Of a stretch of 64,000 nt of DNA, positions 1-8,602 are shown in pieces. The stretch's first letter is position 1. Every line of letters begins with the position of its first letter. Position numbers and translations under genes: made by a program. Under the pieces are notes generated by a model. The model searched no databases and had not been told where the DNA came from. It saw only the letters and a list, made by a program, of their open reading frames with translations. Source of the DNA: Trueperaceae bacterium (GTDB lineage Bacteria > Deinococcota > Deinococci > Deinococcales > Trueperaceae); contig OZ243927.1 in assembly GCA_965213925.1 (NCBI GenBank), positions 2,784,001 to 2,848,000 on the forward strand. Reading direction: 5' to 3'.

Positions 1-924
1 GTGGGCTAGAATACCGTCGATACTTACCCTAGCTTTCGAATTGGTAGGGTATTCCAAAACTTCACCCAATGTGCCTGAACTGCTCGCCGTGTCGCCTGTT
101 ACATATACGCTTTCACCGCTCACCGCTAAACCATGCACGCGCTCAATGACAACACTTCCAAAGATACGCTCCCAGAGCATCTCGCCTGAAGCGTTGAGCT
201 TTACTAAAAGGACGTCGACGCCTGTGGGAACAGTGCCCGGACGAAGCTCGACCTCTTCTAGCGAGTAGTAGCCCGTGAAGTAGACGTTCCCTTCGGCATC
301 GACGGTGAGCGCCCGTAGCGATTCCGAACCCCTGGTGCTAACGCTGAACTGACGTACCCAGAGCTGCTCACCTTGCGGGCTGTATTTGGCGACATAAGTA
401 TCACGGTCTCCTTGTACGTCCTCGACTAATGCACCCCCTATACTGCCCAAGAGGTAAACGTTGTTTTCTTGATCGATGAAGAGGTCAGACACCGCGTCCC
501 CTTTAGGTGAACCGAACTGCTGCCTCCACATCGGCTTACCCTCACGGTACTTTGCGAGATAGACATCCATCTCGCCCCGATGCTCCGCGTAGAGGCTCCT
601 GCTCGTCCGACCTGCGACGATCAGGTCGCCTGCGCTGTCAAAGGCGACCTCGCTCACGGGTGTGTCACGCTCAAAAGTCAAAGTTTCCAGCCACTGCTGC
701 TCCCCGTCCGGCGAATACTTGCTGTAAAACACGGTGTTGAGACCCGCTCGGCTCCAGGTATTAGGGTAGGAGGCGCGACCGGCGACGAGCACCTCGCCCG
801 CTTCGTTGACAGCTAAGGCGTCGCCCGACGAGAGGGCATGTTGGGTTCCGTTCTGGGCAAAACTTAGGCTGAGCAAGCAGAGGATGAGCGTTACAACGGT
901 GCGGAGCAGGCGGTTGACGAGCAT
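1..924 (-). CDS. Secreted SBBP-repeat beta-propeller protein, truncated by the window edge
   Basis: Not in the ORF track; translated by hand. ATG at 924 with GGAGG RBS, signal-peptide-like MLVNRLLRTVVTLILCLLSLSFAQ, and repeated SBBP-like units such as YVAKYSPQGEQLWVRQF and LTVDAEGNVYFTG. Frame runs off base 1. Confidence 0.8.
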   Translation of the reverse strand, partial: MLVNRLLRTVVTLILCLLSLSFAQNGTQHALSSGDALAVNEAGEVLVAGRASYPNTWSRAGLNTVFYSKYSPDGEQQWLETLTFERDTPVSEVAFDSAGDLIVAGRTSRSLYAEHRGEMDVYLAKYREGKPMWRQQFGSPKGDAVSDLFIDQENNVYLLGSIGGALVEDVQGDRDTYVAKYSPQGEQLWVRQFSVSTRGSESLRALTVDAEGNVYFTGYYSLEEVELRPGTVPTGVDVLLVKLNASGEMLWERIFGSVVIERVHGLAVSGESVYVTGDTASSSGTLGEVLEYPTNSKARVSIDGILAH

Positions 925-2625: not shown

Positions 2626-3532
2626 CTAGAGCGTAAGCTGCTCGCCGAACCTTCTGTCCCATTCGGGCGGAGAGAAGGGACCTACGCCTGCTTCCGGATG
2701 AAAGGTCAGCTCGCCGAAATAGATGTCGCCCTCGATGTTATAAAAGTCAACCCTCACGAGGCGAAAGTCTTGGGCGACCGTCTCTGCGAGCGCCTTCATC
2801 TCGTCGAACTTGGGCGGCGCGGGGATGTCCGGACCGTTCTCGTACTTCCACGCGCAGTCGATGAAGGTCCAGTCCGGGTCATAGAGGTTGCGCTTGTGTC
2901 CGGTGAATCTATCTAAGTCGACCTGGATAAACGCCACTTTGCCGTTGAAGCAGTGGAATTTGTAGTCGTTGGGAACGTCAGAGCCCTCGAGCAGGAGCTT
3001 CTCTACGACGATGCGCGGCTCGATATTCTTGTACTGCCACTCCTTCCAGCGGTGGTAGTAGTTCCTTTTGAGCTGCGTGCGCAGTGACTTGCGGACGGCT
3101 TCAAAGTCGACGTGTGACTTGTCCCTGACGATAAAGGCTCCGCCGCCGCTATTGTGGTTCGTCTTGATGATGTGCGGCGTGTCGGGCAGATTTTCAGGTT
3201 TGATGTCAGCCGGGTCTTGCGTGTGAAAGAGTAGGGGGACGAGGTAGGCTTCGCCCAGCTTTTCCTTTATGTAGTCTCGCACGGCGTACTTGTCGGCGCA
3301 TACCGTATGGAGCGGTTTTCTTTCGTTCAGCTTGAGCCACGTGATCTTTTCGTTTAAGGTCTTAGGGATTGTCCAAGTCCGGCTCGTACCCTAGCCTATT
3401 TCGGAACGCCTGCTTGATAAACACTTTTTCGGGAATCAGCGGGACGATGCGAAAGAGGTACACGTCGCTGAGCACCTTAAAAAGGGGGGTCAACAAGGGT
3501 CCAACTCTCGAGTTTTTAAGGGACCTAACCAC
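2626..3532 (-). pseudogene. TupA-like ATP-grasp protein with one frameshift near 3366
   Basis: DYKFHCFNGK, VRVDFY and YFGELTFHP motifs. The N-terminal LDNPKTLNEKITWLKL is split by one extra C in a CCC run. Confidence 0.75.
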
Positions 3533-3983
3533 GTTTCACGCTTCCTTTCTACCCATCTTGAAACTCGCTGGAAGGATGCTCACAGTCCCTTCAAGACGTT
3601 TTTGCAACCCTCTCATACGTAAAATACGCGACCTTACCACTCAACGTTGAGGGCGAACTCACACCGATAAGCGAGCACAGAACGCTAAGATCAGTTCTCA
3701 GAACAAATCGTTCTAATCAACCGTTGAAAAGCGTCGAGGTGAGGGTAGGTACTCAGGGCGGCTAGCCGCCCTAAATGCCTCATCTACTCGTCCAGTCAGC
3801 ATACAATAGGAAATTTTTGGGGCGCGTGGACCTGGTACATTTTTCTCGCCTCGCCGCAATGATGAGGTGTTGATGAAGCCGCCGCGTTACGTTAGTGATT
3901 GCCGCCGTGCGCCAATGCACGTTACACTGAAGATGCTATGCTCTCTCATCTGATTAAGCCAGCGGGCGCTTAGGATACTAGTA

Positions 3984-4685
3984 ATGGACCTTCTTCGCAG
4001 CGGCGGACCTGTACTCATCGCTATTTTGCTCATCTCTTTATACGCGCTCTACCTCTTTATCGAGCGCCTTCTCAAGCTCTCTAAAGAACGCATGGACGTC
4101 GACAAGCTGATGGCGCGCGTCAACGCCGCCGTGCGCGAGCGCAACCTCGAGATGGCGCTCGTCGCCTGTGAGAATCACGGCGGACCGATCGCGAGGGTCT
4201 TAAAGGCCGCTCTGACGCGCCTGCCTTATGGACGCGCCGCCGTCGAAGCCGCCTTTCAGGAGGCGACCTTGGGCGAAGAGCAGCGGCTCACGAAAGGCCT
4301 GCGTCCGCTCGGCACCATCGCGCAGATCGCGCCGCTCTTGGGGCTTTTAGGAACCGTTACGGGCATGATCATCGCGTTTTCAGAGATTTCGCAGCAGGGT
4401 ACGGGCAACCCCGCCGCCTTAGCCGACGGCATCGGGCAGGCGCTCGTGACCACCGCGGCGGGTCTTATCGTGGCGATCCCCTCCCTTATCGGGTATAACT
4501 ACCTCTCGAGCCGCGTGGACAATATCCTCCTAGAGATCGAGCGCCGCCGCGAAGAGCTGATGGGCAACGTGGTCGAGGTGGTTTCGGGGCGCAAGGAGCG
4601 GCGCGGCGAAGGAGCCGACGCCGAGATGAACCGAGACGATACAGTGAGAGACGAGGACGACTATGAACCGGTTCGGGCGTCTTAG
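3984..4685 (+). CDS. exbB: MotA/TolQ/ExbB proton-channel family protein
   Basis: IAPLLGLLGTVTGMI and GIGQALVTTAAGL motifs; 3 predicted TM segments. Confidence 0.92.
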   Translation: MDLLRSGGPVLIAILLISLYALYLFIERLLKLSKERMDVDKLMARVNAAVRERNLEMALVACENHGGPIARVLKAALTRLPYGRAAVEAAFQEATLGEEQRLTKGLRPLGTIAQIAPLLGLLGTVTGMIIAFSEISQQGTGNPAALADGIGQALVTTAAGLIVAIPSLIGYNYLSSRVDNILLEIERRREELMGNVVEVVSGRKERRGEGADAEMNRDDTVRDEDDYEPVRAS

Positions 4686-5076
4686 CCGCAGGAACCGCAC
4701 GGGCCTAGGGCTCGACCTCACGCCGATGGTGGACGTGGTGTTCTTGCTCGTCATCTTCTTCATGGTCTCGACGACGTTTATCACGCTCGAGTCGGGGCTG
4801 CCCGTCGACTTGCCCCAAGCGCAGAGCAGCCAGGCGCAGTCGTCGGAACTGCCGACGGTGACTATCAATCAAGACGACCAGATTTTCGTGGGCGGCTCGC
4901 AGGTCGCCGAGGGCGACCTCGTCGCGGTGCTCCGCGAGGTCTTGGCGTCGAGCGCCTCGGACACGGTGGTGCTCCGCGCCGACCAGTCCGTGCGCTACGG
5001 CTTGCCGGTGCGGGTGATGGACCTGATCAAACAAGCCGGGGCGCAGCGCGTCGCCATCGCGACGGGTGGCAACTAG
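4663..5076 (+). CDS. exbD: ExbD/TolR family protein
   Basis: LTPMVDVVFLLVIFFMV (conserved TM Asp) and LRADQSVRYG motif; overlaps exbB. Confidence 0.92.
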   Translation: MNRFGRLSRRNRTGLGLDLTPMVDVVFLLVIFFMVSTTFITLESGLPVDLPQAQSSQAQSSELPTVTINQDDQIFVGGSQVAEGDLVAVLREVLASSASDTVVLRADQSVRYGLPVRVMDLIKQAGAQRVAIATGGN

Positions 5077-7009
5077 AAACGTGCGACGCAGGAACTATCG
5101 GGAGAACGAACGGAGCTTCTGGCGCGACAAGGAGAAGCGGCGAGCCTTCCTCCTGTCGCTTCTCCTACATCTGGGGGGAATCTTTCTAATCATCTACGCC
5201 TACGTCACGCCGACGCCCCTGGAGCCCGAAAACTTCATCGTGTTAGAACTTGGTCCGAGCGAACAAGCGGACACGAACGACGCGGCAGCCGCCGCCGACC
5301 CCGCCCCGCAAGCGGCAGAGCCGGAAGTGGCGAGCGAGGCGGCGGGTGCGCCGCGCACGCCGACCGCTGCGCCTACGCCGGAGGCGTCAGCCGCGCCCCA
5401 AGCACAAACGCAACCGGCGCAGGACCCGACCCCAGCCGCCCCGCCAGCGCCCCAAGCGAGCGTGCCCGCGCCGCGCGCCGAGCCGCTCGACTTGCCGCCA
5501 CAAGAGGCTGCGGCGACGCTACCCGAGGTCGAGGAGGTGGAACTCGAGCCCCAACCCCTCGCCGAAGCCATCCCCGTACCGCGGCCCAGCGCCGCCGCGA
5601 ACGTGCCCGAAGCGCGCTCGGTTGCCGCGACCCCCCGAGTTCAGGTCGCCGCCCGCGTCGCCGTGCCCGAGCCCAGCGCGCAGGTCGCTGTCGCCGCCGA
5701 GCAGAGCGTGCCGACGCCCCAGGCGCAGGCGTCCGTCGCCGCAGCGAGACCCGTGCCGACGCCCGACGTGAGCGCGAGCGTGCCCGAACGGGCCATCCCC
5801 CAGCCGCAAGCCCAGGCGTCCGTGCCGAGTGCGCAGAGTGTGCCAACACCCCAAGTTGCGGTCGCGGTGCCGACCCCGAGGGCGTTAGCAGTCACGCCAG
5901 GCGTGCAGGTGGCTGAAGCGGAAAGCATCCCGAGCCCGCAAGTCACTGTGGCGGCGGAAGTGCCCGAGACGCCCAGCCAAGCCGCTGAAACGGCCGAAGC
6001 GTCCCAGTCCGGCGACCAGGCCGCGCAGAGAGAGGTCGACGCCGTCGGCGGCAACGCGCCCGACACCGGGCAGACGCAAGTTCAGGACGCCGCGCAAGCG
6101 GACAACGCGGGCGCGGCGAGCGCGCCCGAAGCTTTGAGCGCGCCGCCAGCCGGAGCCCCGGCGAGCCGCACGCCCTACGAGGTGCGCCGCACCCAGCCCA
6201 TCGCGGTGGTCCTGGACAACGCGCTCGGCTACCCGCAGACGGGCTTACGCGAGGCCTCCGCCGTGTTCGAGATGCCCGTGGAGGGCGGGCTGACGCGGCT
6301 CATGAGCGTCTACAACAACCCCAACAGCACGCCCCGCGAGGTCGGTCCGATCCGCAGCGCGAGGGAGTACTTCGTCGCGGCGGCGAGCGCGATGGACGGC
6401 ACGCTCGTTCACGTCGGCGGCTCGCCGAGTGCCTTGAGCGACATCGCCAGAGGACGCACGACCTTGGACGCCTTGGAGCAAAGTGAGCCCTTCTTCGTCG
6501 CGAGCAGCCAGCGCGCACCTTACAGCACCTACGCCAGCGGCAGCGCACTCCGGCAGGCCATCGCCCGCCTCGAGCTAGACGCTTCGCGCGTCCTGCGCGG
6601 CTCCGCGTACCGCCCCGCCGATAACGCGCCCGGCGCGGCGAGCGTGTCGGTGAACTACTCGGCGGACTACTCGAGCGGCTTTCGCTACGTCTCGTCGCTC
6701 GGTCAGTACCGCTGGCTCAGAAACGGCGCGGACGCCTCCGACGCGGGCGGCGAGGACGTGCTCGTCGACGCGGTCGTCACCGCGCAGGTCACGGCGTTCC
6801 CCTACCCCGGCGACCCCGAAGGCCGCCTCTACTTGCCCTACAGCGGCGGCGACGCGACCCTCTTCTTGCGCGGCAAGGAGATTCCCGGCACCTGGAGCCC
6901 CAGGGACGGTTTCAGCTTCTTCGCCGAAGACGGCGAGGCTATCGACTTAGCGCCCTACAAGCACTGGATTCTCTTCGCGCCGGAGTACGCCGAAGTCACT
7001 ACGGGCTGA
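5066..7009 (+). CDS. TonB/TolA-like membrane-anchored protein with Pro/Ala-rich linker and C-terminal DUF3048 (YerB-like) domain
   Basis: TM with SxxxH (SLLLH), about 320 aa of P/A/Q/V-rich linker, then PIAVVLDN..PQTGL..A..VFEMPVEGGLTRL..VGPIRSAR, which is typical of DUF3048. Confidence 0.8.
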   Translation: MATRNVRRRNYRENERSFWRDKEKRRAFLLSLLLHLGGIFLIIYAYVTPTPLEPENFIVLELGPSEQADTNDAAAAADPAPQAAEPEVASEAAGAPRTPTAAPTPEASAAPQAQTQPAQDPTPAAPPAPQASVPAPRAEPLDLPPQEAAATLPEVEEVELEPQPLAEAIPVPRPSAAANVPEARSVAATPRVQVAARVAVPEPSAQVAVAAEQSVPTPQAQASVAAARPVPTPDVSASVPERAIPQPQAQASVPSAQSVPTPQVAVAVPTPRALAVTPGVQVAEAESIPSPQVTVAAEVPETPSQAAETAEASQSGDQAAQREVDAVGGNAPDTGQTQVQDAAQADNAGAASAPEALSAPPAGAPASRTPYEVRRTQPIAVVLDNALGYPQTGLREASAVFEMPVEGGLTRLMSVYNNPNSTPREVGPIRSAREYFVAAASAMDGTLVHVGGSPSALSDIARGRTTLDALEQSEPFFVASSQRAPYSTYASGSALRQAIARLELDASRVLRGSAYRPADNAPGAASVSVNYSADYSSGFRYVSSLGQYRWLRNGADASDAGGEDVLVDAVVTAQVTAFPYPGDPEGRLYLPYSGGDATLFLRGKEIPGTWSPRDGFSFFAEDGEAIDLAPYKHWILFAPEYAEVTTG

Positions 7010-7013
7010 CCCC

Positions 7014-7826
7014 CTACGCGCGCCACCTCGCGAGGCAGCGCTCAGCCTCCCCCGCCAACCACGCACCAAACGCCTCGACGAAAAGCTCACTCTCCGGGTT
7101 TACTTCGGGCTTGATCGCTAGCTCGAGCGCTCTATACATCTCCCCTTTATGCGCGGGATAGTGTTTCGCGAAGCTCTCGTAACAGAGATAAAGGTCGCGG
7201 GTGTAGCGCCTCTCTTCTATCATCACCAGTTCCATCCCCAAGCGGAGAAAGCGCCGCATCAGCCAGACCAAAAAGTTAGCCTTTTCCGCCTCGGGTTCCT
7301 GCGGATACTCATCCAAGAAGAGGTCTAGGTGTTGCTGAAAGTGTTTAGTCTGAAAGGCGATACTATAGTCTAGCGCGTACGGCTCAATATCTCTCGCCAA
7401 ATCGTCGCCGTACACACAAGCGGCTTCCGTTTTGAGGATGAAGGTGTAGGGGTTGTCCCGCTCGAGGACGCCCGCGTACGCCTCGAGTCCTACTTCAACG
7501 CCAGCGACGAAAGGAAACGCGCTCTGAATAGCCTGCTCGACCTCTTCTGCCCAGACCTTCACCTCGTCATACGTCACCGTATTGTCCCAGCTAGGCTCCA
7601 TCACCGCGAAGCTGTCGATGTCAGACACATGCTCGACAGGCGTCCCCTTCGCCAAAGACCCTCGGACGTAGAGGCTGTGAAGGTTGGGCCACCGCTCGAG
7701 ATACGCCCGCTCTAACATCTGCACGGCTTCTAACCACGCGCCTTGAATATTGGCGGCGTCGCCGACGCTCTGTAAGTACCCCCGCGCGTCAACCTCTTGA
7801 TACTTGCCGATTCGCCTAATCTCCAC
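7014..7826 (-). CDS. Nucleotidyltransferase domain protein
   Basis: SLYVRGSLAKG...SDID is a pol-beta-type NTase motif. Start uncertain (7826 or 7859). Confidence 0.75.
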   Translation of the reverse strand: MEIRRIGKYQEVDARGYLQSVGDAANIQGAWLEAVQMLERAYLERWPNLHSLYVRGSLAKGTPVEHVSDIDSFAVMEPSWDNTVTYDEVKVWAEEVEQAIQSAFPFVAGVEVGLEAYAGVLERDNPYTFILKTEAACVYGDDLARDIEPYALDYSIAFQTKHFQQHLDLFLDEYPQEPEAEKANFLVWLMRRFLRLGMELVMIEERRYTRDLYLCYESFAKHYPAHKGEMYRALELAIKPEVNPESELFVEAFGAWLAGEAERCLARWRA

Positions 7827-7921
7827 GCTACTTCCTAGCCGGTGTGCCGCGTTGCGCAAGGGGAACTGTGCGGTGCTCGCACGGAGGATAGTTGCACACC
7901 CGCATGACGAGATACCTTCGC

Positions 7922-8602
7922 CTAGAGCGAATACCCACCCACCTCATCGTCGCGCACGACCTGACCATTTCTCAGCACGATGGTGCGGCGGCGGAGCTGG
8001 TCGACGAGTTCTCTGGCGTGCGTCGCCACGACGACGGTCGTTCCCTTGATGTTGAAATCGTTGAGCAGCTCTAAAATCTCCCAGCTCGTGTCGGGGTCCA
8101 AGTTGCCGGTGGGCTCGTCGCAGAGGAGCAGCGGCGGGTTGGTGACCATCGCCCGCGCGATGGCGACGCGCTGCTGCTCGCCCAAGGAGAGTTCGACGGG
8201 GAACGCTTTGCGTTTATGCGCCAGCGCGACCTGGCGCAGCGCCGCCAACGCCCGCTGCTCGTAGTTGCCGCGCTCGCCCACCGCCCTGAGCGCGAAGGTG
8301 AGGTTGTCCGCCGCGCTCAGGTGCGGCAAGAGGCGGTGGCTCTGAAAGACCATGCCGATCCTGCGGCGCAAGAGCGGCAGCCTGCGCTCGCGCAATTTGC
8401 TGAGGTCTTGCCCTAGAATATAGACGCTGCCCTCGGTCGGGTTGATGCGCCGCAGTAGTAGCGACAGCAGCGTCGACTTGCCCGCGCCCGAATGCCCGGT
8501 GATATAGAGAAACTCACCCTTCTGAATGCGGAAGTTGACATCTCTCAGCGCGTGCGTGTGGGTGCGCGGGTAGGTTTTGGTGACGCGGTGAAACTCGATC
8601 AC
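7922..8602 (-). CDS. ftsE: Cell division ATP-binding protein FtsE
   Basis: MIEFHRVTKTY, GHSGAGKST, LSLGEQQRVAIARA, DEPTGNLDP, and the C-terminal VRDD..GGY. Confidence 0.85.
   Translation of the reverse strand: MIEFHRVTKTYPRTHTHALRDVNFRIQKGEFLYITGHSGAGKSTLLSLLLRRINPTEGSVYILGQDLSKLRERRLPLLRRRIGMVFQSHRLLPHLSAADNLTFALRAVGERGNYEQRALAALRQVALAHKRKAFPVELSLGEQQRVAIARAMVTNPPLLLCDEPTGNLDPDTSWEILELLNDFNIKGTTVVVATHARELVDQLRRRTIVLRNGQVVRDDEVGGYSL

Follow-up and report, generated by a model that had tools for sequence, protein, structure and literature searches.

A TonB/TolA-like arm with a YerB-type head behind an exbB-exbD motor, a probable Ton/Tol-type force transducer in Trueperaceae

Which task might a proton-driven motor of the ExbB/ExbD type fulfil in a bacterium whose genome lacks the classical partners of the Ton and the Tol system, and is the protein encoded directly behind this motor the one that transmits its force? 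This question is raised by three genes at positions 3984 to 7009 of a stretch of DNA of 64,000 nucleotides (nt) from a Trueperaceae bacterium of the phylum Deinococcota (assembly GCA_965213925.1, contig OZ243927.1, positions 2,784,001 to 2,848,000 of the forward strand), which is called the window in the following. The first two genes encode motor subunits and the third encodes an arm that resembles TonB and TolA in its membrane anchor and ends in a head of the DUF3048 family, to which YerB of Bacillus subtilis belongs. The gene order, the domain content, the conservation of motifs and the absence of the classical Ton/Tol partners are observed directly. By analogy to TonB and TolA, these genes likely encode a Ton/Tol-type force transducer, in which an ExbB/ExbD motor would be coupled to an arm with a YerB-type head. 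A distinct Ton/Tol-like system had been proposed in an earlier, sequence-only reading of the window, and this proposal is supported by the domain content, by the linkage to exbB and exbD (exbBD) and by the His in the transmembrane (TM) helix of the arm, the physical coupling and, still more, the envelope target (peptidoglycan, S-layer or outer membrane) being the parts that we infer.

The motor and the arm

The genes and the parts of the arm are arranged as follows (aa, amino acids; ORF, open reading frame):

3984–4685, + strand: ExbB/TolQ-family proton-channel subunit, 233 aa (Pfam MotA_ExbB)
4663–5076, + strand: ExbD/TolR-family subunit, 137 aa, with TM Asp24 (Pfam ExbD)
5066–7009 (or from 5081), + strand: TonB/TolA-like arm with DUF3048 head, 647 aa (ORF, Pfam, TM motif)
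5147–5206, + strand: single TM helix of the arm, aa 28–47, with Ser31-x3-His35 (SLLLH at residues 31–35 in a hydrophobic stretch)
5234–5254, + strand: post-TM strand-like motif FIVLELG, aa 57–63 (conserved in homologues)
5255–6133, + strand: low-complexity linker rich in Ala, Pro, Val, Gln and Glu, aa 64–356 (composition)
6134–7006, + strand: YerB-like head with DUF3048 N (6179–6571) and DUF3048_C (6644–6970) (Pfam, phmmer, AlphaFold2, Foldseek, VIA-align)

The three ORFs overlap by 23 nt and 11 nt, which bears out the three overlapping same-strand genes described by the sequence-only reading. The third ORF starts with GTG, and an alternative in-frame GTG is located at 5081 (Val6); a start at this position results in a 4-nt gap after the exbD stop in place of the 11-nt overlap, and the tight packing of the exbB, exbD and arm genes holds with either start.

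Both motor proteins match their Pfam families far above the cut-offs, i.e., the 233-aa protein matches MotA_ExbB (PF01618; 6.1e-33, 113.7 bits vs. a cut-off of 22.9) and the 137-aa protein matches ExbD (PF02472; 2.1e-32, 112.3 bits vs. 25.4). With the NCBIfam models, the channel subunit reaches 92.6 bits for tolQ (TIGR02796; cut-off 221 bits) and 75.1 bits for exbB (TIGR02797; cut-off 206.2), and the ExbD-type subunit reaches 76.9 bits for tolR and 69.5 bits for exbD. As these scores lie between tolQ and exbB and between tolR and exbD, and below all equivalog cut-offs, the proteins are named ExbB/TolQ-family and ExbD/TolR-family; judged by its scores, the channel subunit is a family member and neither an ExbB nor a TolQ orthologue. 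All 28 aligned orthologues of the ExbD-type subunit have the TM Asp24. The first TM helix (TM1) of the window ExbB contains S-L-Y-A-L-Y, and in its relatives Ser18 is retained in 70, Tyr20 in 60 and Tyr23 in 63 of 72 sequences. It was shown by cryo-electron microscopy for E. coli that Ser16/His20 of TonB touch Ser34/Trp38 of ExbB, and similarly that Ser18/His22 of TolA touch Ser28/Trp32 of TolQ (10.1101/2024.10.08.617233).

The arm starts with a basic N-terminus ending in RRA, followed by the TM helix, an Ala/Pro-rich stretch of 306 aa and the head. R25, R26 and A27 are invariant in the arm alignment, and S31 and H35 are conserved to at least 90%. The protein search listed 120 homologues, the window protein included, of which 100 carry S-x3-H and four T/A-x3-H; eight have a signal peptide instead and eight are N-terminally truncated, so that all 104 anchored homologues have the His and 100 of them the Ser. 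At a distance of 20–44 residues (median 22) past the His, a strict motif of four hydrophobic residues, Asp or Glu, and a further hydrophobic residue (here FIVLEL) is found in 89 of these 104 proteins; the others mostly have Thr at the Asp/Glu position. Similar post-TM motifs are present in the arms of Deinococcaceae and Atribacterota. For TonB, the peptide just past the TM helix was shown to form a β-strand between two ExbD protomers (PDB 8P9R; 10.1101/2023.08.11.552980), and by analogy FIVLELG is probably an ExbD-binding strand.

Residues 51–356 are composed of 25.5% Ala, 17% Pro, 10.8% Val, 9.5% Gln and 9.2% Glu, and the linkers of Deinococcota arms comprise 262–472 aa (median 345, n = 43). 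The N-terminal TM helix with SxxxH (SLLLH) and the linker had both been described by the sequence-only reading; the former is located at S31-x3-H35 within aa 28–47, and the length of about 320 aa given for the Pro/Ala/Gln linker was right within about 15 residues. As a side observation, a 45-nt unit is tandemly duplicated with an 82% match in the linker-coding region (5672–5764, + strand), and the linker protein contains a loose repeat of the type V-P-x-P-x-x-x-A-S-V-A.

The C-terminal head contains the complete pair of DUF3048 domains, with DUF3048 N at aa 372–502 (1.5e-32, 113.3 bits) and DUF3048_C at aa 527–635 (3.8e-9, 37.3 bits; cut-off 25 for both). Neither TonB_C (PF03544) nor a vWA family gave a Pfam match on the 647-aa protein even at E ≤ 1. 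Among the solved structures, phmmer finds only B. subtilis YerB (2PSB, 1.6e-23). An AlphaFold2 model of the head, built from a 59-sequence alignment (predicted local distance difference test, pLDDT, 94.1; predicted template modelling score 0.90), was matched to 2PSB by Foldseek with E 4.8e-24 and template modelling scores of 0.76/0.79, the next match having E 4.8e-3 and a score of 0.08. Similarly, VIA-align superimposed the head on 2PSB with Z 32.4, a root-mean-square deviation (rmsd) of 2.5 Å over 268 residues and 26% identity, the next match having Z 3.3. The assignment of the C-terminus to DUF3048 instead of TonB_C, as suggested by the sequence-only reading, is thus borne out by the full N and C pair with a YerB fold.

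An exhaustive phmmer search with the head resulted in 5017 cluster representatives at E ≤ 0.001, of which 2425 remain at 1e-10 and 61 at 1e-30, and the relatives beyond the Deinococcota set are mostly 330–400 aa long. In a residue comparison of 48 Deinococcota, 13 Atribacterota and 20 other heads, N385, E402, E406, T410, R411, R430, S431, R433 and Y435 and, furthermore, H449, Y548, D583, R587, W610 and W634 (window numbering) are common to all three groups. We read this set, rich in Arg, Glu, His, Asp and Tyr, as a putative ligand-binding or catalytic site that is kept by the motor-linked heads. Since the polar cluster of about 15 residues is the same in free and motor-linked heads, both most likely recognise the same conserved envelope ligand. 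That this ligand is wall-associated is a possibility to which we give well under even weight, and our guess would be an anionic, peptidoglycan-associated molecule.

Linkage, genome context and natural variants

The phylum sample comprised 301 genomes of the families f1 (the family of the window) to f5. DUF3048 is encoded in 115 of these, i.e., in the genome of the window, in 100 of 102 other f1 genomes and in 14 of 14 f4 genomes, and none was found in f2 (0/112), f3 (0/62) and f5 (0/10). ExbD, occurring once per genome, is found in 97 of 102 (f1), 109 of 112 (f2), 11 of 62 (f3), 13 of 14 (f4) and 2 of 10 genomes (f5). In 100 of the 115 DUF3048 genomes, exbD is located directly upstream on the same contig and strand: 96 were assigned by coordinates, exbD lying 958–1800 nt (median 1224) upstream of the DUF3048 N-domain, and four more by individual search (G271, G199, G195) or by locus (G141). 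Among the remaining 15 genomes, six have the genes on different contigs, at or near contig ends or as short open frames (G262, G251, G264, G252, G221, G193), five contain ExbD with the linkage not scored (G274, G223, G292, G244, G218), and four give no ExbD match and have a DUF3048 frame cut to 275–381 aa (G284, G222, G285, G225). A complete DUF3048 locus without exbD linkage was not seen among the 115 genomes.

Moreover, a pattern scan of the species-genome collection, covering the best 80 of 574 relatives, of which the closest named one is a Trueperaceae metagenome-assembled genome (MAG) with 87% head identity, gave 47 loci of the Deinococcota clade. In 46 of these, exbD immediately precedes the DUF3048 gene, and exbB is present as well in 45; L034 is cut, whereas L025 begins at a contig end. 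The exbB-exbD-DUF3048 synteny across Deinococcota, named as a check by the sequence-only reading, is thus seen in the phylum sample as well as in the species scan. Across the 46 loci only the exbB, exbD and arm genes are conserved (44, 45 and 46 loci), and other neighbours reach at most 34. A candidate fourth gene, located upstream and common to 34 of the 46 loci, was rejected as a part of the module because it is missing in the window; in L103 and L104 it looks like PEP carboxylase, judged by the N-terminus alone.

The assembly has 4.75 Mb in six contigs and is 96.9% complete. It encodes one MotA_ExbB, one ExbD and one DUF3048 protein, all at this locus, which leaves the motor without another adjacent partner and the head without another copy. 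Genome-wide searches for TonB-dependent receptors gave neither a barrel (PF00593) nor a Plug domain (PF07715), with matches in control genomes, and gave no TolB_N and no TolA C-terminal domain (domain III, PF06519) in the whole genome. The single OmpA-like domain is encoded about 635 kb past the window end. The statement of the sequence-only reading that no TonB-dependent receptor, tolB or pal is present in the window therefore holds for the whole genome. The genome encodes an Omp85-family protein, and an outer membrane is therefore likely in this bacterium. The sole TonB_C-domain protein of the genome, with 415 aa, is encoded about 1.7 Mb from the window (L003, 1495–2742, − strand); it begins with a short hydrophobic segment and AQAQA, contains a globular N-domain as well as a Pro-rich spacer, lacks a polar TM motif and looks like an orphan secreted protein, not like a TonB anchor.

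Several variants of the module are found in other lineages. In seven Deinococcaceae loci and one Thermaceae (f3) locus (L004–L011), exbB-exbD is followed in 8 of 8 cases by a His-bearing arm (T-x3-H in seven, S-x3-H in one) with a very long Pro/Ala linker and another head. This head comprises about 115 aa with two Cys and belongs to no Pfam family; its model (pLDDT 76) is best matched by residues 198–318 of Treponema pallidum Tp0624 (Z 10.4, rmsd 2.7 Å, 102 residues; next Z 2.7). Since motor and arm occur here with another head, the arm is the constant part and the head is exchangeable. As judged from sequence, motor and arm are present in four of the five families sampled (f5 not included), and the head differs by family. 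In seven of the eight loci the next gene after the arm encodes a conserved protein of about 231 aa that is secreted and belongs to no Pfam family, and in L009 a DUF4384 protein is encoded at this place; with a single query, the 231-aa protein was not found in the Trueperaceae genome.

Eight of the listed homologues (about 490–545 aa; P0017, P0031, P0032, P0038, P0046–P0048, P0057) have a signal peptide in place of the anchor. A PEGA domain precedes the DUF3048 head in the three that were scanned, and the other five were assigned by their similar N-termini. Two genes of this type were recovered:

L101, 212–1702, + strand: secreted PEGA-DUF3048 gene
L102, 6473–7966, + strand: secreted PEGA-DUF3048 gene

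At L102 no exbBD is found in the 6.4 kb upstream or in the rest of the 9.4-kb contig, and L101 is too short to judge. A metagenome scan with P0031 gave four loci, and one with the PEGA-type P0032 gave no relative. In the head tree, a quick LG+G4 tree of 81 rows from which L026, L065 and L068 (contig-end cuts) and L029 (split ORF) were left out, the heads of the PEGA-DUF3048 proteins nest within Trueperaceae next to a motor-linked arm, and in these proteins the head appears to have escaped from the arm recently. The paralogue thereby suggests that the head can leave the arm, the motor linkage being lost too (n = 1).

Free DUF3048 proteins, found in Patescibacteria, in Bacillota/Clostridia and in a few MAGs with odd labels, are 307–424 aa long and have lipoprotein-like, signal or plain anchors. 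None of them carries S-x3-H, and exbB or exbD was found near 0 of 19 testable loci within up to 5 kb on each side, 17 of these loci having at least 4 kb upstream and L073 only 316 nt. They share with the window head the two-domain fold of YerB (2PSB) and the conserved polar residues. Unlike these proteins, which have no motor nearby, the window head is mounted on a TonB-like arm of about 350 aa behind exbBD. Mycobacterial Rv3835, which may be a further DUF3048 protein, is named in a review as a putative ZipA-like gene.

The order exbB-exbD-DUF3048 is also found in Atribacterota, in 10 of 10 testable loci, and three further loci begin at contig ends. Like the window arm, the Atribacterota arms (within L066–L100) have a polar residue four positions past the Ser in the TM helix and a post-TM strand motif; in contrast to the window, the anchor is S-x3-N (13 of 13), the linker comprises about 158 aa compared to about 345 aa, and a giant ORF of about 1000 aa, absent from the window, is located upstream of exbB (7 of 7 loci examined). 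In E. coli, Asn is able to replace His20 of TonB. The Atribacterota ExbB keeps Ser18, and Tyr20 and Tyr23 are replaced by aliphatic residues and Ala. In three loci the gene after the arm encodes a protein with an N-terminus that looks Lgt-like. In the head tree, Deinococcota and Atribacterota form separate starred clades, the Atribacterota heads being placed next to Clostridia (support 87) and not as sisters of the Deinococcota heads. A single clade of motor-linked heads is not rejected by the approximately unbiased test (p 0.43), and one or two recruitments of the head to the motor both fit the data, with neither shown nor rejected.

Proposed mechanism and competing explanations

The three genes probably form a self-contained energy-transducing module of the Ton/Tol type. 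By homology, ExbB and ExbD would build a proton-driven motor in the inner membrane, and the third protein would be its dedicated force transducer. The TM helix of the arm, with Ser31 and His35 on one face, would dock on TM1 of ExbB as TonB and TolA do, and the short strand outside of the membrane would probably insert into the periplasmic dimer of ExbD. The linker of about 300 residues, the length of which fits a thick envelope, would carry the DUF3048 head into this envelope, where the head might grip or process a conserved envelope ligand while the motor would pull, move or gate it. A 5:2 stoichiometry, rotation and force transmission would be carried over from the E. coli structures to this motor, as we infer.

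The system is like the TonB system in the position of the gene after exbB-exbD, the single N-in TM helix with Ser-x3-His, the post-TM strand-like motif, the proline-containing extended linker and a motor with the TM Asp in ExbD and the Ser in TM1 of ExbB. It is unlike TonB in its head (a DUF3048/YerB fold of 290 aa compared to a TonB_C domain of about 90 aa), in its linker (about 300 aa rich in Ala, Pro, Val and Gln compared to the Glu-Pro/Lys-Pro repeats described for TonB) and in the genome, which is without TonB-dependent receptors. With TolA and Tol-Pal it shares the anchor motif, the motor family and the single housekeeping copy per genome, and the motor scores marginally better on the tolQ/tolR models; in contrast to Tol-Pal it lacks TolA domain III, TolB_N and an adjacent pal, and from its composition the linker would not be helical as in TolA. 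The closest published precedent is a new class of His-bearing force transducers with vWA heads, encoded beside tolQR-like genes (Williams-Jones, 2025, Mol Biol Evol, PMC12204202). These transducers are alike in the TolA/TonB topology, the conserved TM His, the tolQR-like synteny and a head that is not TonB_C, whereas their head is vWA and their taxa are Proteobacteria, PVC, Bacteroidetes and Rhodothermaeota. The main text does not contain the terms 'Deinococc', 'Thermus' or 'DUF', and one supplement does not contain 'Deinococc', 'Truepera', 'Thermus' or 'DUF3048'. In a literature search outside of subscription journals, no description of the exbB-exbD-DUF3048 arrangement and, judged by titles and abstracts, no functional paper on DUF3048/YerB was found; the family has one structural-genomics structure.

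Several points weigh against a coupled force transducer. First, the sister family f4 keeps exbB-exbD-arm::DUF3048 and has the arm His in 0 of 10 loci (L012, L013, L107–L114), which is the caveat to the conservation of the TM His in orthologues expected by the sequence-only reading. The His is replaced by Thr, Ala, Glu or Ser, most of these arms have Ala instead of the Ser, and position 18 of ExbB is Thr in all eight loci with a readable TM1. The contact between arm and motor may have co-changed in f4, or the His may be dispensable there; both fit the three patterns seen at the level of lineages. Second, the globular head of 290 aa has about three times the size of TonB_C and its passage through a thick peptidoglycan is not obvious; the head may therefore act on the inner face of the wall. 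Third, YerB is the only match to the modelled fold of the head, which therefore gives no hint of function. Fourth, by a hand alignment to the E. coli TM1, the position of the Trp in TM1 of ExbB appears to be Leu or Val here, with Tyr at flanking positions. Finally, the window arm has Ile42/Tyr46 in place of the Leu/Ser that form the second half of the SHLS motif; this half was shown to be less conserved in Ton (10.1101/2024.10.08.617233).

Among the alternatives, a substitute for Tol-Pal survives best, although we regard it as doubtful. The module would stabilise or constrict the outer membrane at division, the head taking the role of TolA domain III with a lineage-specific partner. The slight lean of both motor proteins to tolQ and tolR in the NCBIfam scores and the single motor per genome across the phylum sample fit this explanation, as do atypical diderms, which were reported to keep tolQ/tolR and for which pal and tolB were never found (Leonard, 2022, PMC8871954). 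However, all of these scores are far under the equivalog cut-offs, a TolA C-terminal domain, TolB_N and an adjacent OmpA-like gene are missing, and an FtsE-like neighbour of the operon is kept only in the closest relatives.

It is unlikely that the third protein is an uncoupled neighbour, i.e., a membrane-anchored YerB-like periplasmic enzyme or binder that shares the operon while the motor works alone or with another partner. The free DUF3048 proteins of other phyla and the PEGA paralogue of Trueperaceae work without a motor, the polar site is identical in linked and free heads, the f4 arms are without His, and a TonB_C-domain protein is encoded elsewhere in the genome. However, the long arm with the polar TM motif is found only beside exbBD and short anchors only away from exbBD, the His is kept in every anchored homologue, and the arm gene overlaps or abuts exbD. 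Moreover, the distant TonB_C protein has a cleavable-looking signal peptide and no polar TM anchor.

An import function as in Ton, in which the head would engage an unrecognised outer-membrane receptor as TonB_C engages the TonB box, is improbable. Architecture and S-x3-H anchor are closest to TonB and the Omp85-family protein makes an outer membrane probable, yet no TonB-dependent receptor barrel or Plug domain is present in this 96.9% complete genome, the head is common to single-membrane bacteria without outer-membrane receptors, and its fold is unrelated to TonB_C. Least probable is that the head serves solely to fix the motor to the wall like the C-terminal domain of MotB, the work being done on something else: the conserved ligand site is common to wall-facing proteins of monoderms and the ExbD here is without an OmpA-like wall-binding domain, but in the known ExbBD/TolQR systems the wall contact is made by ExbD/TolR itself, a flexible linker of 262–472 aa is hardly needed for an anchor, and only three genes are conserved, with no other output protein nearby.

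Returning to the coupled force transducer, a tentative reading of the family is that DUF3048 could act in the envelope as an enzyme on, or a clamp for, a wall-linked ligand of monoderms and diderms, and that on the arm it would be positioned or gated across a thick envelope by the proton-motive force. The TonB-like mounting of DUF3048 in Trueperaceae, f4 and Atribacterota would be part of this same reading and is offered just as tentatively. If true, a third functional class would join Ton (import) and Tol (outer-membrane tethering), the role of TolQR-like motors would be explained in atypical diderms without TolA, TolB and Pal, and the Deinococcota would represent a natural head-swap series with one motor, one arm and heads differing by family. 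The orphan DUF3048/YerB family gains a concrete and testable context, and the arm is a candidate partner for the TolQR-like motors of Deinococcota, where this partner is missing and the lack of pal and tolB was reported (PMC8871954). The phylum offers built-in comparisons, i.e., DUF3048 arms with and without His, an arm that bears a different head, and a paralogue that is secreted, which could separate the contribution of the motor from that of the head. New are the canonical S-x3-H form in a genome context with a sole motor and no receptor, the motor and arm common across Deinococcota families with the head differing by family, the His-less f4 variant with a Ser-to-Thr change in ExbB, the secreted PEGA paralogue and the shared polar site.

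Surroundings of the operon

Upstream of exbB a non-coding stretch is present:

3283–3983, + strand: presumed promoter region or non-coding leader (no ORF of at least 130 aa)

This leader of about 700 nt has a guanine-plus-cytosine content of 52–56% compared to 63–72% in the operon. A consensus scan of 3283–7900 gave no sigma-70-like promoter. The flanks of the module in the window are unrelated housekeeping genes on both strands, encoding a TupA-like ATP-grasp protein, a nucleotidyltransferase-like protein, an ABC ATPase and a nucleoside hydrolase. An FtsE-like ABC ATPase is encoded at 7922–8602 (− strand), and an ftsX-like gene is not found next to it. That the operon is linked to cell division via this neighbour was considered and rejected because, among the loci compared, it recurs only in the nearest relatives (L021, L014, L103, L104). 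SBBP beta-propeller repeats (Pfam 4.4e-9) are found in the secreted protein of an open-ended ORF at the beginning of the window (1–924, − strand).

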